This document shows, piece by piece, positions 1,695-31,626 of a DNA stretch of 37,836 nt. Location of the stretch: assembly GCA_007128145.1 (NCBI GenBank), contig SKXZ01000224.1:1-37836 (forward strand), in the 5' to 3' direction. Source of the DNA: Candidatus Nitricultor lacus. GTDB taxonomy: Bacteria > Atribacterota > Atribacteria > Atribacterales > Atribacteraceae. The notes under the pieces are model-generated. The model was not told where the DNA came from. It did no database searches and saw nothing but the letters and a program-made list of their open reading frames with translations. Numbering within the stretch: the stretch's first letter is position 1; every line of letters begins with the position of its first letter. A program made the translations under genes and the position numbers.

Positions 1695-2948
1695 TCACTT
1701 ACCATCAAACACTGCGAGCAATGCTTCTATTCCCGAGACAATTATAGCACCGGATGAACGTATCGTACCCAACAAGTGCCGGGCTTCTCCTTCCGTGAAG
1801 TCATAATCCTCACGCAGCCCCTCTTCGAAAATTATCACCTGTTTTCCCTTTCGCACCAGGGTGAGAACCTGCCGGAGGTTTTCCAGGTTTCCGTATCCCC
1901 AGTAGGTCGGTGCTACCACAACCCAGCGCGATTGCCCCGCGAGTATCCGGAAACGCTCCGCTGTCTCCGGCCCGAGAGGTGAAAAGGGTTTTTCCGCGGC
2001 CACGGGAAGCCCCAGCCGGCGCGCTGTTTCTTCATCGGTATCAAGCTTGTTGACCATACCCACGCTCACCTGAAAGCCATGTTCGGTGAGGGCGCGCATT
2101 AAGGGTATTCCCGACCCTCCACCACACACGATGTGCACCCGTTCACCCTCCTTCTTTACCGGCTCACGGCGCTTGAGGGGCATGAAGAACGGCCGGTACG
2201 TATGGGGATGGACCTCCTCCAGGAATTCCACATTCAGCAACTCCTCCACTGCGGCGACGTGCATCACCTCATTTATCGGTCCATCACGCAAGATTTTGCC
2301 TGCCTTGAGGAAAAGCGCCCTGGTGCAAAACTGGGATACCAGGTTCAGGTCATGGAACACTCCTACCACCGTCATTCCCTTCCTTCGCAGAGAAAGAAGG
2401 ATATCCATGATCTCGAGCTGATGGAGAACATCCAGATGACTGGTAGGCTCATCCAACAGAAGGAGTTCCGGTTCCTGGGCCAGGGCACGGGCGAGCATCA
2501 CCCTCTGGCGCTCACCACCGGAGAGTTCACCCAGGGGACGGTCGGCAAAGGATGCAGTCGCGGTCGCATGCATGGCTTTTTCCACCGCTTGGTAATCTGC
2601 CTCGCTTTCCCTCCTGAAACGCCGCAGATGAGGGAACCGGCCCAACAGCACCACCTCGAAACAAGGGAGAAAAATATCAGTGGGGACCTCCTGGAACACC
2701 ATTCCCACCACCCGTGCCCACTCCTCCCGGCGCAAAGGGGAGGTCGGATTGCCTTCCAGCTCCACTTTGCCCGAGGAAGGAGGAAGTAACCCGGCTAAAA
2801 GGTACAGCAGGGTGCTTTTCCCGGAACCGTTCGGTCCGGCCACACCCAGAAATTCACCCCGGGGGAGCTGGAAAGAGACCCCTCGCAGGGCTTTACGATC
2901 TCCGTAAGCGAAGCTGAGTGAACGAACGTGCAGGAAAGGCTTCACCAT
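1695..2948 (-). CDS. ABC transporter ATP-binding protein (FepC/BtuD iron-siderophore/cobalamin type) with an extra C-terminal domain of about 160 aa
   Basis: Walker A GPNGSGKST, signature LSGGERQRV and Walker B LLLLDEPTSHLD. It overlaps the upstream permease by 7 nt. The C-terminal part (from about aa 255, VHIVCGGGSGIPL...) is not part of a canonical NBD. Confidence 0.85.
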   Translation of the reverse strand: MVKPFLHVRSLSFAYGDRKALRGVSFQLPRGEFLGVAGPNGSGKSTLLYLLAGLLPPSSGKVELEGNPTSPLRREEWARVVGMVFQEVPTDIFLPCFEVVLLGRFPHLRRFRRESEADYQAVEKAMHATATASFADRPLGELSGGERQRVMLARALAQEPELLLLDEPTSHLDVLHQLEIMDILLSLRRKGMTVVGVFHDLNLVSQFCTRALFLKAGKILRDGPINEVMHVAAVEELLNVEFLEEVHPHTYRPFFMPLKRREPVKKEGERVHIVCGGGSGIPLMRALTEHGFQVSVGMVNKLDTDEETARRLGLPVAAEKPFSPLGPETAERFRILAGQSRWVVVAPTYWGYGNLENLRQVLTLVRKGKQVIIFEEGLREDYDFTEGEARHLLGTIRSSGAIIVSGIEALLAVFDGK

Positions 2949-3973
2949 CGCCCCCTCCTCCTGCGCAGCAGATACACGAAAAATGGTGCTCCCAGAATCC
3001 CGGTAACGATGCCCACCGGCAGTTCCACGGGGTGTACGACGGTTCGGGCGATCACGTCAGCCCACAACAGCACCACTCCACCGGCAAATAAGGAAGCGGG
3101 CAGAAGAAGGCGGTGGTTTTGCCCGCCCAAAAGGCGCACGAGATGCGGTACCACAAGGCCCACGAAACCGATGACACCGCTTACAGAAACACAGGCCGCC
3201 ACCAGGAGAGAAGAGGTGACCAGGAGGCGTTTTTTGACTTTTTCCACGTCAACCCCCATACTCTCGGCGGCCCGTTCCCCCAGGAGAAAAGCATTGAGTT
3301 CACGGGCATGGGCAAGAAGAACCGGTACCGCAAACACGGTAAAAGGAAGAGTCATCCACACTTCACGGTACCCCCGGTTCCACAAGCCTCCCATGATCCA
3401 AAACACTACCTGGTGAAGGCTTTCCCCCGCCATGTACATTCCCAGGGAAATGAGGGCGGAAAAGAAAAAACCAACTGCTACTCCGGCCAAAAGGAGGGTT
3501 TCCAGGGGGAAGCGGTGTCCAATTCTTCCCAGGCTGAAGACCACGGCCGCCGTAAGCAGGGCGAAAGCAAAGGCGGTGACGGGTATGGCAAGAACACTCC
3601 GCGATATACCGGTAAGAATGGCTACCACCGCCCCGAAGGCGGCCCCGGAGCTTATTCCGAGAATATAAGGATCCACCAGGGGGTTACGGAAGAGTCCCTG
3701 CATGACCGCGCCGGAAAGAGACAGCCCTCCGCCTACCAAAACAGCCAGAAAAACACGGGGAAGCCGTATCAGGAGAAGGATAGTCCGCTCGGTTCCCTCA
3801 AGCTGCCCCGGCCGCAGGAAGGCGCCGATATCACTCACATTAAGTGTTCCCCCGCCCACCGCTCCCGCCAGGAGAATACTTAAAAAGAGACCTCCCGCCA
3901 GGGCGACCATCAACAGGCGGTCGCGACGGCGCTCATGGTCACGCCTTGCCCTAGGGGAGCTCAAGTGCTCCAT
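2942..3973 (-). CDS. FecCD/BtuC-family ABC permease
   Basis: 343 aa polytopic protein with typical FecCD motifs (LSGAVMQGLFRNPLVDPYILGISSGA, IGFVGLVVPHLVRLL). It lies between the binding-protein and ATPase genes. Confidence 0.85.
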   Translation of the reverse strand: MEHLSSPRARRDHERRRDRLLMVALAGGLFLSILLAGAVGGGTLNVSDIGAFLRPGQLEGTERTILLLIRLPRVFLAVLVGGGLSLSGAVMQGLFRNPLVDPYILGISSGAAFGAVVAILTGISRSVLAIPVTAFAFALLTAAVVFSLGRIGHRFPLETLLLAGVAVGFFFSALISLGMYMAGESLHQVVFWIMGGLWNRGYREVWMTLPFTVFAVPVLLAHARELNAFLLGERAAESMGVDVEKVKKRLLVTSSLLVAACVSVSGVIGFVGLVVPHLVRLLGGQNHRLLLPASLFAGGVVLLWADVIARTVVHPVELPVGIVTGILGAPFFVYLLRRRRGRW

Positions 3974-4871
3974 GGGATTCTACGCGTGCGGGGTGGAAGA
4001 GAGACGCAAACAAGCGCAATGCTTCGACCACCCTCGGTCCGGAGCGGGAAACGATGTCTGAACTCACCCGGTGTACTCTTCCATTCTCTCGGGCGGAGGT
4101 GGCCCCGAGTCGGGAGTCCGACATCACGAACTCATAGGGCAGGTTTTCAGCTGCTCCATGATCGTCCACCACGGTGATTATCTCCGGATTCCGCCGCAGT
4201 ACTTCCTCAAGATCAAGTGTCACATAGCCTGAAAGCTCACCGGTGAGGTTATGTCCCCCTGCCCGATTGATCAGGTGACCGACAAAAGTATCTCCTCCCA
4301 CCGTCCATACCGGGTCATGCCAGATAAGGTGGAGCACGGAGGGTTTATCCTCTTCTTCCAATCCTTCCAGGAGCGAGAGTACTTCCCCTGCTTCCTCCCG
4401 CAGCGACTCCACTTTCTCAAGTCCTTGCGGGTGATGGGCGATCAAGGACACGATCTCCATGGATTCGAATATTTCCTCGATCGTCCGGGGTTCGAGAACA
4501 AAGACGTCGAGCCCCAGTTCCGTGAGCCTCGTTACCGCTTCATCCGGCGTGAGTGAACTTGCCAGTACCAGGGCAGGAGCGAGTCGGACAACGGCTTCCA
4601 AATCAACCTCGGTAATGCTTCCGATGACATCCTTTTCAGCCACCTCCGGCGGGTAGTTACAATACGTTGTCACACCCGCCAGGCGATCAGCCAAACCCAG
4701 GTAATAGACAATTTCCGTATTGGCCGGTGAAAGTGATATGATCCGCTCGGGGGGTGCTGAAAAACGGAGTGTTCTGCCCTCGTGATCCGTAAACTCCGTA
4801 CCGGCGTGCGCAGAAGGCAAAAAGGTAAGCAAAAGGAGAAAGAGAGTACATACGATACAGCATAACTTCAT
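3951..4871 (-). CDS. Periplasmic/lipoprotein-type substrate-binding protein (BtuF / Fe-siderophore class, cluster A)
   Basis: Start reassigned to ATG at 4871 (MKLCCIVCTLFLLLL..., SD GAGGTGA 7 nt upstream). The longer track ORF (to 4955) runs into the riboswitch expression platform. The sequence pattern IISLSPANTEIVYYLG is typical of BtuF-like PBPs. Confidence 0.8.
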   Translation of the reverse strand: MKLCCIVCTLFLLLLTFLPSAHAGTEFTDHEGRTLRFSAPPERIISLSPANTEIVYYLGLADRLAGVTTYCNYPPEVAEKDVIGSITEVDLEAVVRLAPALVLASSLTPDEAVTRLTELGLDVFVLEPRTIEEIFESMEIVSLIAHHPQGLEKVESLREEAGEVLSLLEGLEEEDKPSVLHLIWHDPVWTVGGDTFVGHLINRAGGHNLTGELSGYVTLDLEEVLRRNPEIITVVDDHGAAENLPYEFVMSDSRLGATSARENGRVHRVSSDIVSRSGPRVVEALRLFASLFHPARVESHGALELP

Positions 4872-4980
4872 GGAAAGATCACCTCGTTTATTGGCATGGA
4901 AAGAGAAGGAGGTGAGGGAGGATATCCCGGGCATGGTCGGCGGAAACCACATCAATCCCCACCTCCTCTTTCCACGAAGA

Positions 4981-5150
4981 GTGGTTGGGGTAACATGGAG
5001 GCAGGTCTCCTGACTCCCGGATCTTCGCGTACGCGTTTGCCTTCCCGGTTTTTACCAGTGGCTCTGTACGAGCGCCGCTCCCCGGTCACAGTGGCGGGAC
5101 CGCGCCGGAATCACACCGGACTTCCCTTTTAAGGCCCGAAGGCCACCCAC
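4981..5150 (-). promoter_or_regulatory. Cobalamin (B12) riboswitch controlling the BtuFCD-like operon
   Basis: Minus strand reads AAAAGGGAAGUCCGGUGUGAUUCCGGCGCGGUCCCGCCACUGUGACCGGGG...GCCACUGGUAAAAACCGGGAAGGC...AGUCAGGAGACCUGCC. This is the conserved cobalamin core plus B12 box (box at 5000-5015). P1 candidate is GUGGGUGG/CCAACCAC. Confidence 0.9.
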
Positions 5151-5168
5151 AGTACTTCAACCGGTCAC

Positions 5169-5201: not shown

Positions 5202-5398
5202 TAAAAAGCGGGGGAAGGTAGGGCGGGGAAGTGGGGAATTGGAAAGGCGGTGGAATTCCACTACTCACGACTCCCTACTCCCGACTCACTGACTTTGCAC
5301 CCCTTCTACCCTTTTACCCTTATACCCGTCTACTTAGATGCCCGTCTACCCTTTTACCAATATACACATATACACATATACGCGTATACGCATTTCCG
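5202..5398. repeat. Mosaic intergenic repeat block: module C (inverted, 5202-5247), module A (5258-5298, + orientation), module B 8-nt periodic tract (5299-5398)
   Basis: CCACTAC TCACGAC TCCCTAC TCCCGAC TCACTGA heptamers are followed by ACCCTTTT ACCCTTAT ACCCGTCT ... ACACATAT ACACATAT ACGCGTAT ACGCATTT octamers. The same modules recur at 23530-23760 and 31385-31607. Confidence 0.85.
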
Positions 5399-5412: not shown

Positions 5413-5847
5413 TTATTCGAGAAAGGGATTGATTACCGTCACTTCCCCGTATTTCTGCTTATGAGAAAGGTCTTCTGACCAGAGTATGGAACAACCAAGG
5501 CAGTTGGCACTACATATGATGAGTGCATCCCAAAAAGAAAGCTCGAATCTTTGCTGTATCGTAATAGCTTCCAAAATATCCTTTAGATCAGGCATATGAA
5601 ATTTCCATTGCCCAAGATCAGCAATAATCAATGATGCTTTATCATACGGCAAGGGTTTGGGAACCTTCTGAGTGATGTTCACATATAATTCCTGAAGAAC
5701 CTGGCTGCTCAGGCACCCATTTCCAGTATGCCAGAGTTTTTTTACCAATGCAGTTGAACGCATGTTCTTATCAGGATCCGAACGGTCAAAAGCGTATATA
5801 AATATATTTGTATCTACAAATTGTAATATACTATTTCTTTCTTTCAT
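5413..5847 (-). CDS. vapC: PIN-domain toxin (VapC family)
   Basis: 144 aa. Acidic PIN residues are in context (FVDTNIFIYAFD, QVLQEL, FWDALI, WSED). It overlaps the upstream small antitoxin ORF. Confidence 0.8.
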   Translation of the reverse strand: MKERNSILQFVDTNIFIYAFDRSDPDKNMRSTALVKKLWHTGNGCLSSQVLQELYVNITQKVPKPLPYDKASLIIADLGQWKFHMPDLKDILEAITIQQRFELSFWDALIICSANCLGCSILWSEDLSHKQKYGEVTVINPFLE

Positions 5848-6079
5848 GAACTTCTTCTCTTTCCCAGGGAATTTTTCCTTCCATTCCCAGATTGAAGCCT
5901 TTTTCTAACAGGGCAAGCTGTCTGGAACATGCATTTTGGTATGCTTTTTCATTGTTTACCAATTCTTCAAGAACCCTGGTTAACAGTCCTGATACTGATG
6001 TGTTTTTATCCACGGCAATATGTTTTACTTTTTGAAGTAAATCCTTAGGCAAAGAAAGGGTTATATTGCGTCGTTCCAC
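5831..6079 (-). CDS. vapB: Ribbon-helix-helix type antitoxin (VapB-like)
   Basis: Start reassigned to GTG 6079 (SD GGAGGTG, 8 nt spacing). The N-terminus VERRNITLSLPKDLLQKVKHIAV is a typical RHH beta-strand/helix. It is the 5' partner of the PIN gene. Confidence 0.65.
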   Translation of the reverse strand: MERRNITLSLPKDLLQKVKHIAVDKNTSVSGLLTRVLEELVNNEKAYQNACSRQLALLEKGFNLGMEGKIPWEREEVHERKK

Positions 6080-6111
6080 TGTATGGTCACCTCCACGTAT
6101 ATAAGTATAAC

Positions 6112-6139
6112 ACATTAATACGTGAGATATGAAATTCAA
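6112..6139 (-). promoter_or_regulatory. Candidate vapBC promoter with a flanking inverted repeat (ACGTAT..17 nt..ATACGT)
   Basis: Minus strand: TTGAAT, 16 nt spacer, TAATGT. The ACGTAT/ATACGT arms bracket the -10 and TSS region, as expected for antitoxin autoregulation. Confidence 0.4.
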
Positions 6140-8406: not shown

Positions 8407-8608
8407 CCTTGATAATGAAATAAGCGCGTGTGAACTGGTTTACCGGTACCTGGATGTCTACACCGGCTGAATCTCCGAAGTAGGCTTCGCCACCGTACGG
8501 TTCGGTGGTGGACTTGAGAACCACCTTGATCCCCTCGGCCTCAAGATGCCCGCGAATAAGCTCGGCTTCCATCCGGGTATGGGTCGTTTTTACAGTTTTA
8601 TACTCCAC
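8360..8608 (-). CDS. Small DUF2007-like (putative signal-transducing) protein
   Basis: 82 aa. The MEAELIRGHLEAEGIKVVL pattern is typical of the DUF2007 beta-alpha-beta fold. Confidence 0.5.
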   Translation of the reverse strand: MEYKTVKTTHTRMEAELIRGHLEAEGIKVVLKSTTEPYGGEAYFGDSAGVDIQVPVNQFTRAYFIIKDVENSIGKEGVDSDT

Positions 8609-8807
8609 TCCGCGTCAGCTCCTTTCTCACTACTTTTCTATACCTCAACCACTCCTTCTCTCCCTCAATTCCCCCGTATCTACAGTTTTCTTATTCACCT
8701 GATGTGATTTGCGATGTGTGAAATGAACCTTATTTATTATAGAATATATATCAATTCCAGAAATATGAGAAAAATTCAAAAGGCTATTGAGGGTTATGGG
8801 CGTTTAT

Positions 8808-8846
8808 TTACTACTCACGATTCACGACTCACGACTCACTGTATTT
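8808..8846 (+). repeat. Module A heptamer repeat, sense-oriented in the 5' leader of the nitroreductase gene
   Basis: TTACTAC TCACGAT TCACGAC TCACGAC TCACTGT, then ATTTCAGAAC GGAGG TTTTCA ATG (8864). Confidence 0.85.
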
Positions 8847-11390: not shown

Positions 11391-11407
11391 ACCGCACCTC
11401 CTCCTTT

Positions 11408-11441
11408 GTAAATGCAGTGAGTAGGGAGTCGTGAGTAGTGG
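11408..11441 (-). repeat. Module A heptamer repeat, sense-oriented immediately 5' of the aminopeptidase SD
   Basis: Minus strand: CCACTAC TCACGAC TCCCTAC TCACTGC ATTTAC AAAGGAGGAGG TGCG GTG. Confidence 0.85.
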
Positions 11442-11593
11442 AAAAAACACCCAAACCCTCAACTGCATTTAACATATTTGATGCCGCAACGTATGTTGCT
11501 GGGCGGCTCCTTTGTGAATGCAGTGATTACATAAAAACATACTTTACCATGAAGAGGATTTTCGGAAAAGTGCATCTCTATAAAAGGCCTGAA

Positions 11594-12055
11594 GGCAGGG
11601 GAATGCCCTTCGGGCCGGGAGACGGGAGTCGTAAGACGTAAGACGGATAAAGACGGGGGAAAGGATTGAAAAATGCGTGAGGGGTGAGGGGCCATGTAAA
11701 GTATGAAGTATGATTTCAGAAGTATGAAGTCAGATTTTCAAATCTACATTCATAAATCCGACTTCAGCAATTCCTGTGTCATTCCGGCATGTGGTAAACC
11801 GGAATCCAGTGGCTTTCTTAAAGGCGGTCTAGGAGTGAGTGTTGAAGGGAAAAAACTTTTGACCGTTGGTGTATTAACCCTAAACTCTAGACTCTAAACC
11901 CTAAACAGCTTTTATAGGGCGGTCTAGGGTCGAGCGTTAAGAGTTTAGAGCAAGGGACGTTCGAAGGTTGAGCACAACCACTCATGGCTAAAAATGGGGA
12001 CGCATCCAGGACCCCACTTCATGCCGGGGTGACGAAATGTGGTTGGCCGTGAGAT
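11594..12055. repeat. Mosaic repeat block X (modules E, C-like, AGTATGA heptamers, I, H, CCCTAAA heptamers, G)
   Basis: It shares ordered modules, in inverted orientation, with 16666-16978. Module G (12009-12055) is 47/47 identical to the reverse complement of 16666-16712. Confidence 0.85.
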
Positions 12056-13038: not shown

Positions 13039-13067
13039 TTGACGCAAAAAGGAAAAAGTGGTAGTAT
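13039..13067 (+). promoter_or_regulatory. Near-consensus sigma70-type promoter of orphan RNA-1
   Basis: TTGACG (13039-13044), 17 nt spacer, TGgTAGTAT (-10 at 13062-13067 with extended TG). The predicted TSS is about 13074. Confidence 0.65.
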
Positions 13068-13073
13068 CTTTTC

Positions 13074-13252
13074 AGATCACGGGTTCCGAGGAGTTTTTTG
13101 GTCCGAAGGCCGGAAGCCGTCCTGGGAAACACCTGCAAGAGGGACGACCGGCATGTTCTGTAACCGCCGGAAGATATGAGGGGAAAGATGCGTTGCCCCG
13201 GCGTGAGAGAGAACTTCCAGGTTCGTTGGGACCCGTGATCTTTTGTATTTTT
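13074..13252 (+). ncRNA. Orphan structured small RNA (RNA-1), class unassigned
   Basis: A 14 bp closing helix pairs AGAUCACGGGUUCC (13074-13087) with GGGACCCGUGAUCU (13228-13241) and is extended by GGAGUU/AACUUCC. Three internal hairpins follow (GGUC-CGAA-GGCC; CCGG..CGUCC/GGACG..CCGG; CGCC..GGGG/CCCC-GGCG), then the 3' tail UUUUGUAUUUUU. There is no credible ORF and no downstream same-strand gene. Confidence 0.55.
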
Positions 13253-13275: not shown

Positions 13276-14115
13276 CTACCCTTTGACCGCTCCTTCAGTC
13301 AGACCACCTACCAGATGGCGTTGTACAAAGAGAAAGATAACGAACACCGGTACACAAATAAGGACTGAGGCGGCCATCAAATTCCCCCAGATCGTCTCAT
13401 ATTGCCCCACAAAATCAAAAATGCCTCGCGGGAGTGTGCGTTTTTCCGCGCTGGTGATGAAGGTGAGCGCGAACATAAATTCCTGCCAGGTAATAAAGAA
13501 AACATAGGAAGCGGTGGCTCCGATCCCGGGCCGTACCAGGGGAAGTACTACTTTCCAGAATGCCTGCCAGCGGGTACACCCGTCAATAAGGGCCGCTTCT
13601 TCCAGGTCCCTGGGGATACCGGTGAAAAACCCGCGTAACAACCACACCCCCACCGGCACGGAAAAAGCAAGATAAGCGATAATGAGCGATAAAAATGAAT
13701 CGATAAGACCAACCCTGCTCATGATGCGGTAGAGAGGAACTATGATCGCTGCGAGGGGAAAAAGCTGGCTCAAAAGGAGCAGGGTAAAAAATCCCATCCT
13801 CCCCGGGAAATACAGCCGGGCAAAACCGTAGGATGAAAATATCGCTACCGCTACTACGACTAATGTAGTACTGCCGGCTACCAGGAAACTATTGAGAAAA
13901 TAACGGGCAAACATGGATCCCCTGCCGAACACATGGAAATAGTTCACGACCGTCGGCCGCTGGGGAATCAAGCGGGGTGGGACCGTAAACTGTTCATCCG
14001 GTTCCTTGAGAGACATGGAAATCATCACGGCAAAAGGAAAGAGCACAAAAGCCACCAGCAGTACCACGAATATGCCGGTGACCACTTTTTTGCGGGTTTC
14101 TATGGCACGCATCAT
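13276..14115 (-). CDS. CUT1-family sugar ABC transporter permease (MalG-like)
   Basis: 279 aa with 6 TM segments and the EAA loop DLEEAALIDGCTRWQAFWKVVLPL. It overlaps the upstream permease by 4 nt. Confidence 0.85.
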   Translation of the reverse strand: MMRAIETRKKVVTGIFVVLLVAFVLFPFAVMISMSLKEPDEQFTVPPRLIPQRPTVVNYFHVFGRGSMFARYFLNSFLVAGSTTLVVVAVAIFSSYGFARLYFPGRMGFFTLLLLSQLFPLAAIIVPLYRIMSRVGLIDSFLSLIIAYLAFSVPVGVWLLRGFFTGIPRDLEEAALIDGCTRWQAFWKVVLPLVRPGIGATASYVFFITWQEFMFALTFITSAEKRTLPRGIFDFVGQYETIWGNLMAASVLICVPVFVIFLFVQRHLVGGLTEGAVKG

Positions 14116-16316: not shown

Positions 16317-16332
16317 GAAATATTCCTCCCTT

Positions 16333-16383
16333 GTGAATGCAATGAATAGGGAGCAGGGAGTCGTGAGTAGGGGGAGGAGTAAA
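16333..16383 (-). repeat. Module A heptamer repeat, sense-oriented immediately 5' of the binding-protein SD
   Basis: Minus strand: CCCCTAC TCACGAC TCCCTGC TCCCTAT TCATTGC ATTCACA AGGGAGG AATATTTC ATG. Confidence 0.85.
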
Positions 16384-16613
16384 TCCCTCATTTCTAATGG
16401 CTCGCGGATCCCCTTTCCCCATTTCTCCCCTTTCCCCTTATTTTACAGGGATCCAGAGGCTTCTTATCAAACAAGAACCAAGGAAACAGAATTCCCATCC
16501 CTGTTTATTACATAAAGTGACAAGCTTACTCCATACGCTAATAACCGGATAATGCACCTCTCATTTTTACACTCCAAATCGTTTTCTGATTATTTTTTAT
16601 CACCTCCCCGGTA

Positions 16614-16653
16614 GGTGCAGTGAGTAGGGAGTGGGGAGTCGTGAGTAGTGGAA
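16614..16653 (-). repeat. Second module A copy upstream of the same operon
   Basis: Minus strand: CCACTAC TCACGAC TCCCCAC TCCCTAC TCACTGC ACC. Confidence 0.85.
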
Positions 16654-16665
16654 ACTCAATTCTTA

Positions 16666-16978
16666 ATCTCACGGCCAACCACATTTCGTCACCCCGGCAT
16701 GAAGTGGGGTCCAGAGGCAGAGGCAGTGCCCCATGCCGGGGTGACACAACAGGGCATTCCCCGCTGTATTCGTCCCCTGCATTTTAAAGCCACTGGATTC
16801 CGGCTTACTCCATGCCGGAATGACACAGGATATTGATGATTTCAGATTTATGATTGTAGATTTGTAAAGCCTTTCCACTTCCCCATTTCAACAATTCCCC
16901 GCCTCACCTTCCCCGCTCCTCCTTCCCCGGCCTTTATCCGTCTCACTGCCCGAAGGGCATATCCCGCTGTATTCGTCC
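16666..16978. repeat. Mosaic repeat block Y (modules G, E-like, H, I, C, E), the inverted counterpart of block X
   Basis: Its reverse complement aligns module by module with 11594-12055. Its distal part (16888-16978) is inside the 3' end of the URO-D-family ORF. Confidence 0.85.
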
Positions 16979-18217: not shown

Positions 18218-19393
18218 CTATACCAATGTCTCGAAGTAGGAGGTTATGGCCTGCCGGGCTGCTCCCAAGGCGACCGTGTCAACCTCTCCCTTGCTTCTCA
18301 ATATGGGGGTGTCAGAAGCTCCGAGAGAGAAAATATGTTCATGGGCTACGCTTTGGGCTTCTTCACAGTAAATGGGGCAGCGGCGGCTTATTTCTCCTCC
18401 CAGTATGACAGCTTCCGGATTCAACACGTTGACAACATTCGCAATTCCCTTGCCCAACATCATTCCCGCCTCAACCAGCACATCTCGCACCATGGGATTG
18501 CCGGCTTCATAGGCCTGCATAACCCAGTCAAAATCAATCTCAGGGAGCGCGTTTCCATCCCTTTTCTGCAATCTTTTTTTCACTTCTCTCGAGAGGGCCG
18601 AAGTCGATGTGTACTGTTCAAGGCATCCCCTGTTTCCACAATAACAAGGGATCCCATCACGCTCGATTACCATGTGGCCGAATTCACCACTCGCACGGTT
18701 ACGCCCTCTCACCATCTCACCTTTGTAGACCATCCCCCCACCTGTACCCCAATCCAGATACACATAGAAGAATGTTTTATACTCCCTTCCCCAACCGAAT
18801 ATCATCTCGGCTAAAGTAGAAGCGCGCGCGACATTTTCGATAAACACCGGGTAAGGGAAAAGCGGAGAGAACTCTTCTTCGGCGTCAATGGAATGCCAGC
18901 CAAAAAAAGGCGATTGAGTTATGTGTTCAGCCGACTTGAACAAGTACCCCGGAGTGCCCACCCCAACTCCCGCGATCATTTCCCTCGGAAGAGAAGCTTT
19001 TTCGCGCATCCTTTCTACCTCAAGGGATAACTGGGAAGCCAGAGAAAGAGGGCCTCGTGAGATGTCGGGTACAACAGTGGTGCGGTCTTGAATGGTGCCT
19101 GAAAGGTCACAGAGGACAAGTGAGGTCGCTCGGGAAATCTCCGCCCCGAAAACATAACGATGATCAGCGTTGATTTCAAGCAGGAGAGGACGTCGTCCGC
19201 CGGAAGAATCTCCCTTGCCCACTTCACGCAGCAGCTTCTCTTCGAGCAAGCTATCGACAATGCGTGATACAGAAGGGAGAGACAGGCCGATGCGCCGGGA
19301 AAGTTCCGTTCGAGACAAGGGAAACTCTTTCTCGATGACCCGTAAAATACTTTGCCGGTTGATTTTACGAATTAAGGGTGGGTTCCCTCTCAT
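18218..19393 (-). CDS. ROK-family transcriptional regulator (NagC/XylR-like)
   Basis: Start at ATG 19393. N-terminal wHTH (SRTELSRRIGLSLPSVSRIVDSLLEE), ROK glycine motifs, and the zinc motif CYCGNRGCLEQY. Confidence 0.85.
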   Translation of the reverse strand: MRGNPPLIRKINRQSILRVIEKEFPLSRTELSRRIGLSLPSVSRIVDSLLEEKLLREVGKGDSSGGRRPLLLEINADHRYVFGAEISRATSLVLCDLSGTIQDRTTVVPDISRGPLSLASQLSLEVERMREKASLPREMIAGVGVGTPGYLFKSAEHITQSPFFGWHSIDAEEEFSPLFPYPVFIENVARASTLAEMIFGWGREYKTFFYVYLDWGTGGGMVYKGEMVRGRNRASGEFGHMVIERDGIPCYCGNRGCLEQYTSTSALSREVKKRLQKRDGNALPEIDFDWVMQAYEAGNPMVRDVLVEAGMMLGKGIANVVNVLNPEAVILGGEISRRCPIYCEEAQSVAHEHIFSLGASDTPILRSKGEVDTVALGAARQAITSYFETLV

Positions 19394-19424
19394 TTTCTTA
19401 CTTAACCTTTGTAAGAATGAATCT

Positions 19425-19453
19425 ATTGTAGGAAAGCACACAAACTCTGTCAA
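19425..19453 (-). promoter_or_regulatory. Consensus-like sigma70 promoter of the ROK regulator gene
   Basis: Minus strand: TTGACA (19453-19448), 17 nt spacer, TACAAT (19430-19425). Confidence 0.65.
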
Positions 19454-19536
19454 GTGGTAAAATCCGGTGAGTCCTCCCACGAACAATCACGTTTATATTC
19501 AGGCGCATTCACTGTCCAAGTGAAATCGAACGCTTA

Positions 19537-19564
19537 TTGACACGGGGATTTAAGGGAGTATAAT
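19537..19564 (+). promoter_or_regulatory. Consensus sigma70-type promoter of orphan RNA-2
   Basis: TTGACA (19537-19542), 16 nt spacer, TATAAT (19559-19564). It is divergent from the ROK promoter, 84 bp away. Confidence 0.65.
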
Positions 19565-19569
19565 AAAAG

Positions 19570-19743
19570 ATGTAGCGGGCTTTCGAGAGATTGGATGCCT
19601 TGAGGGTCGAAATGTTGGGAGGTTTATCTCCCTAAAAAAACAGCAATGCTGTAGACCCTTTACCGGACGGGGAACCTCGGAAAGGCCAGAGAGGTGCTCC
19701 GAAAGGGTGCAAAGGCAAAAGGTCTGTTGAAAGCCCGTTTTTT
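19570..19743 (+). ncRNA. Orphan structured small RNA (RNA-2), class unassigned
   Basis: The closing helix CGGGCUUUC/GAAAGCCCG (3' arm 19729-19737) is followed by U6. It is extended by AGAUU/GGUCU and UGCCUU/AAGGCA. An internal three-way junction GGGUC...GACCC encloses hairpins GGGAG-GUUUAU-CUCCC and ACAGC-AAU-GCUGU, and there is a further branched arm. There is no ORF and no downstream same-strand gene. Confidence 0.55.
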
Positions 19744-19753
19744 CGTTGAGGTT

Positions 19754-20059
19754 TCATCCCAAAACCACGCGCATCACCCATACTGTCACTACTCCAACCG
19801 CCATGGAAAGCAAGAGGTTTTTGGAACGTAACGCAGTCACGGCGGTAGCAGCGATGGCTATGGCCTCGGCTACTCCACCGCGGGCTGCCGCGGGAGCCAC
19901 AATGGATATCAGGACGGTTCCCGGCACATGCTCCAACAGGCGCCTCAAGCGAGGGGAGAGGCTCCGGCGGTCCGCCATCCAGTATCCAAATATTCTGGTT
20001 GCATAGGTGACTGCCGCCATAGCACAAATGGTGGCAATAGTCCGTACGTCAATTCCCAT
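19754..20059 (-). CDS. azlD: AzlD-family branched-chain amino acid transport protein
   Basis: 101 aa with 3-4 TM segments, immediately downstream of and overlapping azlC by 11 nt. Confidence 0.75.
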   Translation of the reverse strand: MGIDVRTIATICAMAAVTYATRIFGYWMADRRSLSPRLRRLLEHVPGTVLISIVAPAAARGGVAEAIAIAATAVTALRSKNLLLSMAVGVVTVWVMRVVLG

Positions 20060-23529: not shown

Positions 23530-23870
23530 GATTGTATATGCGTAGACAAATGGGTGGATGTGTAAATGCGTATAAGGGTAAAAGGGGGGGGGCAAATGCA
23601 GTGAGTCGGGAGTAGTGGAAAGGTTTAAATGCCGTGAGGAGTAAGGAGTGAGGGGTGAGGAGTAAAAGGCCCCACTTCTTACGATTCACTGCTCACGGCA
23701 TTTATCATTCCCCATTTCACCTTCCCCGCCCCACTTTCCCCGGCTTTTACCCGATTCACGGCCCGAAGGACTGTCACTGCCCGAAGGGCATTCCCCCTCG
23801 ACTCTAACCCTTGACTCTCGGCTGCCTTTAGATTTCCCTTCTAACTTCTAACCTCTTACTCTTCACCGTT
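23530..23870. repeat. Mosaic repeat block (module B inverted 23530-23591, A inverted 23592-23622, long hairpin D 23627-23703, C 23707-23752, E 23754-23797, CTCTAAC/AACTTCT heptamers to about 23870)
   Basis: It is largely collinear with 31385-31607 for about 190 nt. Module A/B is sense-oriented upstream of the ThiI-like gene. Confidence 0.85.
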
Positions 23871-31384: not shown

Positions 31385-31607
31385 TGCGGGCCTAGGTGCG
31401 TGAATGCGAAGGGTAAAAGGGGAGCAAAGGCAGTGAGTCGTGAGTAGGGAGTCGTGAGCAGTGGAAAGGTTTAAATGCCGTGAGGAGTAAGGAGTGAGGA
31501 GTAAAAGACTCACTTCTTACGATTCACTGCTCACCGCCTTTATCATTCCCCATTTCAGCTCTTCTCCGCCTCACCTTCCCCGCCCCATCTTCCCCGGCTT
31601 TTATACG
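31385..31607. repeat. Mosaic repeat block between convergent genes (B-like, A inverted 31424-31469, hairpin D 31473-31541, C 31544-31607)
   Basis: It is collinear with 23560-23752. Confidence 0.85.
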
Positions 31608-31626
31608 TCTTACTTCTCCCTGAATT

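Follow-up and report, generated by a model that had tools for sequence, protein, structure and literature searches.

Does the interval between azlD and the ROK regulator gene of Candidatus Nitricultor lacus hold an RNA gene in its own right, or does it serve the operon whose end it faces? Within the stretch of DNA analysed (37.8 kb in all, hereafter the window), a promoter TTGACA-16-TATAAT at 19537-19564 (+) lies upstream of a 172-nt segment that a sequence-only reading had described as an independent orphan structured RNA gene, here RNA-2. At the level of sequence analysis the core of that description holds: body and promoter are conserved, and there are zero Rfam matches. The elements that delimit the predicted gene are as follows.

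19537-19564, plus strand: sigma-70-type promoter of RNA-2 (-35 TTGACA 19537-19542, 16-nt spacer, -10 TATAAT 19559-19564; 12/12 match)
19572-19743, plus strand: predicted RNA-2 transcript, about 172 nt, both ends predicted
19738-19743, plus strand: U6 tract, directly 3' of the closing helix P1

Both hexamers, which had been claimed to be perfect, were verified at these positions, and no other site in the window, on either strand, matches the promoter consensus 12/12, the chance expectation being about 0.014 such matches. The transcript start was placed 6-8 nt past the -10 hexamer and its end at the U6 tract. In the window species, and there alone, P1 and U6 together make up a putative intrinsic terminator, the stem of which is a long-range closing helix rather than a local hairpin. 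RNA-2 does converge on the 3' end of azlD, although the distance of 11 nt given earlier was measured as 10 nt (the minus-strand stop codon of azlD ends at 19754). It is also divergent from the ROK regulator, as had been proposed, with the ROK promoter (TTGACA-17-TACAAT) located on the minus strand at 19453-19425. No plus-strand gene lies downstream of RNA-2, the next feature being the azlD 3' end on the opposite strand. A small-protein reading finds no ORF common to the two species that carry the segment, in any frame, and comparison of the translated region with the protein database, for mis-called ORFs, gave no candidates.

The segment 19572-19746 has an MFE of -76.5 kcal/mol, against -52.1 +/- 4.4 kcal/mol for shuffled sequences (z = -5.6), with none of 200 shuffles folding as well; the minus strand of the region folds more weakly (-57.8 kcal/mol). 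In the predicted fold of the window sequence, the 5' and 3' ends pair and are followed by U6. Every helix listed in the sequence-only reading was recovered in the MFE fold, including GAAAGCCCG at 19729-19737, with a pairing probability per listed helix of 0.8-0.99 in the window. The fold is composed of the following parts.

19574-19586 / 19727-19739, plus strand: P1, 5' strand AGCGGGCUUUCGA, 3' strand UUGAAAGCCCGUU
19587 opposite 19726, plus strand: G.G mismatch between P1 and P2
19588-19592 / 19721-19725, plus strand: P2, AGAUU / GGUCU, from the MFE fold and pairing probabilities
19593-19595 opposite 19718-19720, plus strand: unpaired GGA opposite AAA, a purine-rich internal loop
19596-19601 / 19712-19717, plus strand: P3, UGCCUU / AAGGCA
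19712-19739, plus strand: 3' strands of P3, P2 and P1, with unpaired AAA and G between them
19602-19660, plus strand: arm A, stem GAGGGUC / GACCCUU (GGGUC / GACCC closure)
Within arm A, plus strand: hairpin 1 at 19617-19632 with loop GUUUAU, A7 at 19634-19640, hairpin 2 at 19640-19652
19661-19711, plus strand: arm B, with two competing folds

P1, P2 and P3 form a closing stem of about 23 bp that carries a branched body. P1 reaches pairing probabilities of 0.98-1.0 in both species, its pairs being unchanged between them save the outermost (G-C vs G.U), and P3 retains just 4 bp (GCCU/AGGC) in the orthologue. Arm B can fold either as a long irregular hairpin (UACC/GGUG, CGGGG/CUCCG, ACCUC/GAGGU) or as a local hairpin at 19695-19711 (UGCUCC/GGUGCA). 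The second long arm of the earlier description is therefore only partly upheld: it is present in the window MFE structure, with a probability of 0.8-0.99, but in the orthologue (about 0.5) it competes roughly 50:50 with the local hairpin (0.45). The local hairpin holds the sole compensatory change between the species (G-C to A-U) and two mismatch-to-pair changes. The unpaired segments of RNA-2 are A/G-rich. Such stretches are typical of RNAs with tertiary structure or protein-binding roles; seed regions that target Shine-Dalgarno sequences are C/U-rich.

RNA-2 is known from two soda-lake Atribacterota species only. The check for homologues in relatives yielded one orthologue, in the second species (locus L001), with the same order of azlD, RNA and ROK. 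The body is identical at 145 of 164 positions (88%), and 50-nt windows range from 84 to 92% identity; the flanking coding sequences are 74-77% identical (third codon positions 49-56%), and the remaining intergenic spacer, at 0-40%, is not alignable. The promoter hexamers are identical, and the 8 of 28 promoter positions that differ all lie within the spacer. By this alignment, conservation of promoter and body far exceeds the neutral level. The longest block identical between the species, 19663-19695 (CCGGACGGGGAACCUCGGAAAGGCCAGAGAGGU), lies in arm B, and a 25-nt block in the 3'-strand region 19712-19739 is likewise identical. In arm A the linkers and the loop of hairpin 2 take up the substitutions, apart from a change of A-U to G.U in the stem. 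Columns vary at 8 of 108 paired and 11 of 57 unpaired positions (Fisher p = 0.04). The changes in paired columns are A-U to G.U, a change from G-C to G.U in the outermost pair of P1, a single compensatory G-C to A-U, an indel at the foot of a 3-bp stem, and three mismatch/pair differences due to the choice of consensus fold. In this two-species comparison the substitutions are shown to spare paired positions or to preserve pairing. Covariation, with one compensatory pair among 54 and 157 of 500 shuffles equalling it, is not significant because there are just two lineages.

The orthologue has an MFE of -77.6 kcal/mol (z = -4.9). Its tail after P1 is CAUUUCUAU, with GCCCGCAUUUCUAUCC where the window has U6. 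The U6 tail reported after P1 is thus present in the window and absent from L001, so the 3' end of RNA-2 is uncertain there. In L001 the RNA stops 2 nt from the azlD stop codon. A strain variant (L012/L013) has the ROK side replaced leftward from 19425, and in it RNA-2 and its promoter remain beside azlD.

Membership in a described family was sought among the 4227 families of Rfam 15. At gathering thresholds, the sole family in the whole window is a cobalamin riboswitch at 4983-5163. At E <= 10, RNA-2, its L001 orthologue and RNA-1 (a second candidate RNA in the window, described below) gave noise only, and the best sub-threshold match on RNA-2 was RAGATH-36 (14.2 bits vs a threshold of 70). 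The run included RF00504 and returned no match for either RNA-2 copy, in line with the orphan status first suggested. ARAGORN detected no tRNA-like module in 19400-19800. 6S RNA was rejected as a candidate: RNA-2 is branched, not a rod with a central bubble, and has zero Rfam matches.

The remoter Atribacterota loci with the ROK/sugar-ABC cluster or azlCD are without RNA-2: it was not found by nhmmer and covariance models R1/R2 at ROK homologue loci of 48-62% identity (L003-L009), or by nhmmer and covariance models at AzlC homologue loci of 55-57% identity (L016-L020). The protein database contains one relative only that is closer than 62% (ROK) or 61% (AzlC), which indicates that the lineage is very thinly sampled. 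Scans of genome contigs with the exact pattern GAGAGATTGG-N-GGCAAAAGGTC gave two chance matches, those of metagenome contigs with an invariant-block pattern (loops exact, stems R/Y) one, and those of viral contigs with four patterns one, within a methyltransferase gene. Since such scans demand exact matches and are blind to diverged homologues, absence from them is weak evidence. A blastn search of RNA-2 against phages and plasmids returned nothing.

Candidate partners were sought as well. The best duplex that RNAduplex predicts between RNA-2 and 33 translation-initiation regions of the window has an energy of -53.1, within what shuffled sequences give (-50.7 +/- 3.6). No TROVE/Rsr, CsrA, Hfq, reverse transcriptase or Cas gene accompanies RNA-2 in the window, and none of the 33 predicted window proteins (0/33) has a TROVE domain. 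RNA-2 contains 5 GGA motifs per 165 nt, about the expectation from composition, three of them unpaired; as regards a CsrA sponge, no CsrA gene is present in the window, and a literature search linked no CsrA to Atribacterota.

From these observations, RNA-2 is very probably a functional, selected element of some kind. The explanation that we favour, with fair rather than high confidence, on promoter, conservation and predicted structure, is a real RNA gene on the plus strand whose structured product acts through its fold. On this view RNA-2 would be a structured small RNA outside every described family, and lineage-restricted. The consensus sigma-70 promoter would start transcription 2-4 nt ahead of the closing-stem segment, and the P1-P2-P3 stem would carry a branched body with purine-rich unpaired segments. 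The RNA may be abundant and stable, and would act via its folded shape, by binding a protein, another macromolecule or a ligand, and not as an antisense RNA with a short seed. The closing helix and U6 would, in the window species, also terminate the transcript ahead of the azlD stop. Complementarity of RNA-2 to the 3' UTR of the convergent azlCD-operon mRNA is unavoidable, and this overlap is probably a side effect, at most a second function.

A second predicted RNA in the window, of like layout and conserved in both species as well, speaks for this explanation.

13039-13250 (body 13074-13250), plus strand: RNA-1, promoter TTGACG-17-(TG)GTAGTAT at 13039-13067
13074-13089 / 13226-13241, plus strand: RNA-1 closing stem, AGAUCACGGGUUCCGA / UUGGGACCCGUGAUCU, then UUUU

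RNA-1 (MFE -71.5, z = -2.5) converges on the stop codon of a sugar-ABC permease at 13276. It has an orthologue in L001 at 8470-8650 (-), in which the promoter hexamers are kept and the flanks have diverged. P1 of RNA-1 is followed by CUUUU in both species, and P1 with a U-rich tail occurs in three of the four RNA copies (RNA-1 and RNA-2, both species). The architecture said to be common to RNA-1 and RNA-2 was borne out and extends to a motif at the P1/P2 junction of the closing stem, CGA-G-P2 / P2-G-UUG. Reciprocal covariance-model matches between the two reach 10.2 and 12.8 bits only, and their interiors do not align. RNA-1 is a possible paralogue of RNA-2.

The operon that RNA-2 faces offers another explanation, which we hold to be unlikely: that the conserved block exists chiefly for the benefit of the thiI-like/larE/eamA/azlC/azlD operon on the minus strand, the mRNA of which would end within the RNA-2 gene at a terminator-like site.

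19633-19652, minus strand: hairpin ACAGCAUUGCUGU then U7 (read 19652-19633), a weak terminator-like site about 100 nt beyond the azlD stop, of predicted function

RNA-2, strongly transcribed, would then pair with at least 110 nt of the azl-operon 3' UTR, or collide with polymerase, and thereby set 3'-end formation and stability. The geometry is suggestive, since RNA-2 nearly abuts the azlD stop codon (at 10 nt in the window or 2 nt in L001) and the operon transcript very likely overlaps it. The minus-strand hairpin and U-run within arm A recur in both species (A/U run of 7 vs 5), RNA-1 is likewise convergent, at the end of the sugar-ABC operon, and RNA-2 stays with azlD where the ROK side is rearranged. 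Nevertheless, the hairpin is weak (5 bp), and in L001, where it is retained and followed by U5 only, it falls below the terminator-scan threshold. Pairing in cis can do without sequence conservation, yet all 165 nt are conserved, and these comprise the 60 nt at the 5' end, beyond the putative operon terminator. Because antisense complementarity is automatic, the constraint on RNA-2 must stem from its own sequence and structure. Moreover, the plus-strand helices include 5-7 G.U pairs, which favour the folded plus strand: in both the window and L001 the antisense strand is less stable by 10-19 kcal/mol, and its fold is not a mirror image.

We give little credence to the view that RNA-2 is a sensor gating antisense read-through. 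Its body would bind a ligand or factor and decide whether the 5' strand is free for timely formation of P1 and termination at U6; failed termination would send polymerase antisense into azlD/azlC (an amino-acid exporter), and RNA-1 would act likewise for the sugar-ABC operon. P1 is the sole helix adjoining the U tract and requires the extreme 5' end. The terminator stem thus needs that end free, so folding or occupancy of the body would choose between termination and read-through. An alternative partner for the 5' strand CUUUCGAG is CUCGGAAAG, which belongs to the invariant block of arm B, an arm with two competing folds. Both RNAs face transporter operons, and the recurrence of P1 with a U-rich tail also fits. 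Against this, the U tract is lost in L001 RNA-2, the alternative pairing, at 8 bp with a bulge, is short and may be due to chance, and neither copy resembles any Rfam riboswitch family. The P1-P2-P3 stem is, to our knowledge, far stabler than any ligand-dependent P1 of known riboswitches. It is just as improbable that RNA-1 and RNA-2 are paralogues of a new class in which the state of the body picks termination or antisense read-through into a transporter operon. The module of such a class would read CGGG-N3-4-CGA-G-P2 ... P2-G-UUG-N3-4-CCCG, then a U-rich tail, and read-through would target the azlCD/eamA exporters (RNA-2) and the sugar-ABC importer (RNA-1). If true, this would be a sensor regulating an operon from its 3' end.

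It appears very unlikely that RNA-1 and RNA-2 are two relic or domesticated copies from a MITE-like family with elements about 170 bp long, the closing stems being terminal inverted repeats. The two are similar in size, share orientation and lie 6.3 kb apart, flanking the ROK/sugar-ABC cluster; both are bounded by long, imperfect terminal inverted repeats that share a motif; the window contains several dispersed intergenic repeat families; and a strain-level rearrangement breakpoint lies 150 nt off. However, no further copy was found in the window (blastn-short, covariance model) or in about 220 kb of related loci, and the interiors of RNA-1 and RNA-2 fail to align. There is no target-site duplication, the flanks being GATGT and TTTTC for RNA-2 and TTTTC and TTTGT for RNA-1, and the conserved promoter is not part of the inverted repeat, from which a constant 10-11 nt separate it. 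Both elements occupy orthologous sites with 86-89% identity in species whose synonymous sites are saturated, a retention that rules out a neutral relic. The concern that the region might be another copy of a dispersed repeat was likewise dispelled for the window, as blastn-short and a repeat search revealed no similarity to the window repeats. Finally, a degenerate or variant glycine riboswitch, suggested by the resemblance of AGGCAAAAGGUC and CGAGAG to glycine-aptamer core strings, can practically be dismissed, as the sequence-only reading had itself concluded: RF00504 gave no match even at E <= 10 (window 19450-19800; L001 3690-3960), which refutes family membership in both species, CUCCGAAAGGGUGCAA is replaced by CUCCAUAAGGGGGUAC in the orthologue, so that the core strings are not kept, AGGCAAAAGG is mostly base-paired as the 3' strands of P3 and P2, and no plus-strand gene follows.

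Anoxic sediments and the deep subsurface are rich in Atribacterota (OP9/JS1), a phylum that has barely been cultivated, and a literature search found no paper on its non-coding RNAs. An RNA of this size (about 170 nt), strongly promoted and highly constrained, suggests that the lineage has an RNA-protein or RNA-ligand interaction as yet unrecognised, the more so should RNA-1 turn out to be a paralogue that shares its closing stem. In practical terms the gain is modest, amounting to one or two candidate families for the catalogue of orphan structured RNAs; the coordinates and models for RNA-2 can be used in a metatranscriptome check, and the mechanism is not yet opened up.

Among known systems, cis-encoded antisense RNAs and bidirectional terminators resemble RNA-2 in its convergent position almost abutting the last stop codon of an operon. 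RNA-2 differs from them in being conserved beyond what antisense pairing needs and in its elaborate branched fold, and the overlap here is a prediction from geometry. Promoter-carrying MITEs such as the Correia elements of Neisseria are likewise intergenic, about 170 bp long, bounded by imperfect terminal inverted repeats and transcribed as a long hairpin, whereas RNA-2 is single-copy (window and related loci), has its promoter outside the repeat and sits at an orthologous site under purifying selection. With the glycine riboswitch (RF00504) it has in common a P1-closed three-way junction and the strings CGAGAG and AGGCAAAAGG, but these are base-paired in RNA-2, whereas those of the aptamer form an internal loop.

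Y RNAs and YrlA also have 5' and 3' ends paired in a long stem below a variable body, and two or more paralogues per genome, for which RNA-1 and RNA-2 are a candidate case here. Their stem of the form ..CCGA/UUG.. with a G.U pair is echoed in RNA-1 (GGGUUCCGAGG), the counterpart of which in vertebrate hY1 is UGGUCCGAAGG. The 5' stem strands of RNA-2 (UUUCGAGAG) and RNA-1 (GUUCCGAGG) have CGA alone in common with the Y RNA motif, which is GGUCCGA / GNCGAAN0-1G in the stem (PMC4201824), and UCCGAGG and UUCGAGAG depart from GNCGAAN0-1G. YrlA is encoded about 4 kb or less from the rsr (Ro60, TROVE-domain) gene, on the same strand (PMC4201824), whereas no TROVE/Rsr gene occurs within 4 kb of RNA-2 or in the 38-kb window. 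RNA-2 further differs from Y RNA and YrlA by the lack of a tRNA-like module (ARAGORN) and of an Rfam match, and the RNAs described here measure 165-175 nt vs 80-130 nt for Y RNAs.

Orphan non-coding RNAs, such as the raiA motif and the Breaker/Weinberg classes, provide the remaining comparison. RNA-2 matches none of the Rfam families, comes from two species only, with a predicted structure, and has a closing helix that directly adjoins a U tract in one species, all of which set it apart. Nevertheless, RNA-2 is like them a putative stand-alone intergenic gene with its own promoter and no downstream gene to regulate, with a multi-branched fold, purine-rich junctions and conservation above neutral.

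RNA-2 is a predicted plus-strand structured RNA (19572-19743), whose closing stem leads into a three-way junction in the predicted fold. The features of the locus are as follows.

18218-19393, minus strand: gene of a ROK-family regulator, its own promoter divergent from that of RNA-2
19574-86 / 19727-39, plus strand: P1, outermost helix of the closing stem, 13 bp (predicted fold)
Between P1 and P2, plus strand: G.G mismatch (predicted fold)
AGAUU/GGUCU, plus strand: P2 (predicted fold)
Between P2 and P3, plus strand: purine-only internal loop GGA/AAA (predicted fold)
UGCCUU/AAGGCA, plus strand: P3 (predicted fold)
19602-60, plus strand: arm A, two hairpins with an A7 tract between them
19661-709, plus strand: arm B, a long irregular hairpin
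3' end facing RNA-2, minus strand: five-gene operon (thiI-like, larE, eamA, azlC, azlD)

The sequence-only reading of this site, a consensus promoter followed by nested helices and a U6 tail convergent on azlD, was confirmed. The promoter consists of TTGACA (19537-42), a 16-nt spacer and TATAAT (19559-64), and neither strand of the window has another sigma-70 match of 12/12, with about 0.014 expected by chance; the start site should lie near 19570-72, 2-4 nt ahead of the first paired base. U6 (19738-43) directly follows P1 as described, but ends 10 nt rather than 11 nt short of the opposite-strand azlD stop codon. Segment 19572-19746 folds at -76.5 kcal/mol, against a mean of -52.1 +/- 4.4 for dinucleotide shuffles (z = -5.6), and in the window sequence the pairing probabilities of all helices lie at 0.8-0.99. 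The antisense strand is 19 kcal/mol less stable because the sense helices hold 5-7 G.U pairs.

The order azlD, RNA and ROK is repeated in a second Atribacterota species, on contigs L001 (JGI, soda-lake sediment) and L002 (Logan); its ROK and AzlC proteins are 80% and 78% identical to those of the window. Between the two species the RNA-2 body is identical at 145/164 positions (88%), on par with first and second codon positions; the corresponding values are 74-77% for the flanking coding sequences, 49-56% for their third codon positions and 0-40% for the rest of the intergenic spacer. A 72-nt segment within 19461-19536, between the ROK promoter and that of RNA-2, is present in the window species and absent from L001. 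Both hexamers are identical in the orthologue (again 12/12) and the sequence between them has diverged; kept hexamers with a diverged spacer are the signature of a promoter. The orthologous RNA is predicted to be as stable as the window copy (-77.6 kcal/mol, z = -4.9). Its U6 tail is not kept, L001 reading GCCCG-CAUUUCUAU instead, and a terminator scan at that 3' end found nothing. This two-species conservation is the main evidence that RNA-2 has a function and that the plus strand is the one read.

The 19 variable alignment columns comprise 8 of 108 paired and 11 of 57 unpaired ones (Fisher p = 0.04, from two species). Among the paired columns, the arm A stem shows A-U to G.U and the outermost P1 pair G-C to G.U; a local hairpin of arm B holds one true compensatory change (G-C to A-U), a 3-bp stem has one indel at its base, and three further differences are of the mismatch/pair type. 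Covariation is not significant, with one compensatory pair among 54 and 157 of 500 shuffles equally good. The longest invariant block (19663-95) lies within arm B, whose modelled fold is ambiguous: the long arm dominates in the window, whereas in the orthologue it is balanced about 50:50 against the local hairpin (GUACUCC/GGGGUAC). The helices first proposed held with high pairing probability in the window, the long hairpin of arm B less so in the orthologue.

The window was placed in Atribacterota (Atribacteraceae) via ROK homologues. RNA-2 is identical in contigs that match the window at 99.6-99.8%, from an NCBI MAG (GCA_007119915.1, SKOT01000276.1) and from ENA and Logan assemblies. At 19425, just beyond the -10 hexamer of the ROK promoter, lies a strain-level breakpoint: to its left, in the MAG (L012) and ENA (L013) contigs, otherwise 99.8% identical, the terminator hairpin of another gene replaces ROK over the last 88 nt, where both contigs end, and RNA-2 with its promoter nonetheless remains beside azlD. 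Several assemblies of ROK loci from more distant Atribacterota (L004, L005, L007, L008), made independently of one another, break 75-230 nt upstream of ROK, which hints at a repeat or variable junction in those lineages too.

Rfam returned no family for RNA-2 at threshold, and relaxed searches in both species gave noise alone. The earlier decision not to call a glycine riboswitch was borne out: there is no RF00504 match, the orthologue does not keep the 'CUCCGAAAGGGUGCAA' string, most of AGGCAAAAGG sits in helices and no gene lies downstream. Nor is RNA-2 simply another dispersed-repeat copy, as had been considered, since it is unrelated to the window's repeats (purine-rich 8-nt-period modules and a second repeat family). 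No ORF is conserved between the two species, and ARAGORN found nothing tRNA-like. RNA-2 was not found at loci of more distant Atribacterota that carry the ROK/URO-D/sugar-ABC cluster or azlCD; insensitive exact-pattern scans of genome, metagenome and viral collections gave chance matches alone, and blastn of phage and plasmid collections gave no match. Just two species represent the lineage in the protein database; what can honestly be said is that two species are known to have RNA-2, which does not mean that others lack it.

The purine-rich units of the dispersed intergenic repeats (AGTGAGTC GTGAGTAG GGAGTCGT ..., 8-nt period) occur with C-rich complements at 5256-5371, 8810-8846, 11400-11448, 16325-16373, 16603-16653, 16869-16947, 23600-23760 and 31409-31614; copies 23600-23722 and 31446-31560 are 90-93% identical and able to form a long hairpin. 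Another repeated element occurs in inverted orientation in two long intergenic regions (11772-12055 and 16666-16830); its copies are complementary over 47 nt (100%) and 45 nt (93%) and contain CATTCCGGCATG...CCGGAATCC-type hairpins. A periplasmic-binding-protein/FecCD/ABC-ATPase transport operon (1695-4955) has a cobalamin riboswitch upstream (RF00174, 109 bits; 4983-5163, minus strand), with promoter TTGACT-16-TATACT (5196-5169). Two overlapping genes at 5413-6139 (minus strand), for a PIN-domain protein of 144 aa and a DUF6364 protein of 102 aa (27.0 bits, slightly short of the Pfam cut-off of 27.3 bits), look like a VapBC-type toxin-antitoxin pair.

A second predicted structured RNA, RNA-1 (about 175 nt; 13074-13250, plus strand, or 13039-13250 including promoter TTGACG-17-TGGTAGTAT), has its 5' and 3' ends paired in a closing stem of 16 bp with UUUU after it, and converges on a sugar-ABC permease gene, 26 nt from its stop codon. 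It has no Rfam match and is conserved at the orthologous site (L001 8470-8650, minus strand), with hexamers kept and flanks diverged. In both species the two RNAs flank the ROK/sugar-ABC cluster on both sides, each facing the 3' end of a transporter operon. They have in common the promoter-to-P1 distance (10-11 nt), close interior lengths (124 vs 127 nt), purine motifs in similar order in the last arm (CCGGA, GGGGAA, GAAAG, AGAGAG) and a junction motif, CGGG-N3-4-CGA-G-[P2] ... [P2]-G-UUG-N3-4-CCCG, with the G.G mismatch; their P2 helices differ by compensatory changes (GAGUU/GGUUC in RNA-1, AGAUU/GGUCU in RNA-2). The shared layout noted earlier stands, and the likeness extends to this P1/P2 junction motif. 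Because reciprocal covariance-model scores are low (10.2 and 12.8 bits, on the level of other hairpins in the window) and the shared pattern was drawn up after both sequences had been seen, homology of the two is a lead rather than a result; they are possibly a two-member family.

RNA-2 is a real, previously undescribed candidate RNA gene in an under-studied phylum: its status as a functional element is well supported, its mechanism poorly understood. Candidates for orphan RNAs turn up often; the distribution of this one is narrow, and nothing so far indicates an unusual function. What the evidence supports best is a structured small RNA, stable and probably abundant, that would act by its folded shape; in favour are constraint spanning the whole molecule, paired termini, purine-rich unpaired segments and a perfect consensus promoter. 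No Rsr/TROVE, CsrA, Hfq, reverse transcriptase or Cas protein is encoded in the window.

An antisense or collision effect on the azl operon 3' end is plausible, since overlap with its 3' UTR is geometrically unavoidable and a weak minus-strand hairpin, ACAGCAUUGCUGU + U7 (19652-33), inside the RNA-2 gene may be the azlCD operon terminator; the hairpin is kept in L001, followed by U5. Such an effect cannot account for the conservation of the RNA-2 body, since antisense complementarity comes with any sequence. Of low probability, though notable if true, is the more speculative idea that RNA-1 and RNA-2 are conditional terminators: the closing helix, which needs the 5' end, would control whether transcription runs on, antisense, into the transporter operon. 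Geometry and competing folds agree with this idea; the U tract lost in one orthologue and the great stability of P1-P3 weaken it. Paired ends, possible paralogues and a ..CCGA/UUG.. stem hint at a role like that of Y RNAs, but the RNAs and the window do not show the features that define that family (PMC4201824).
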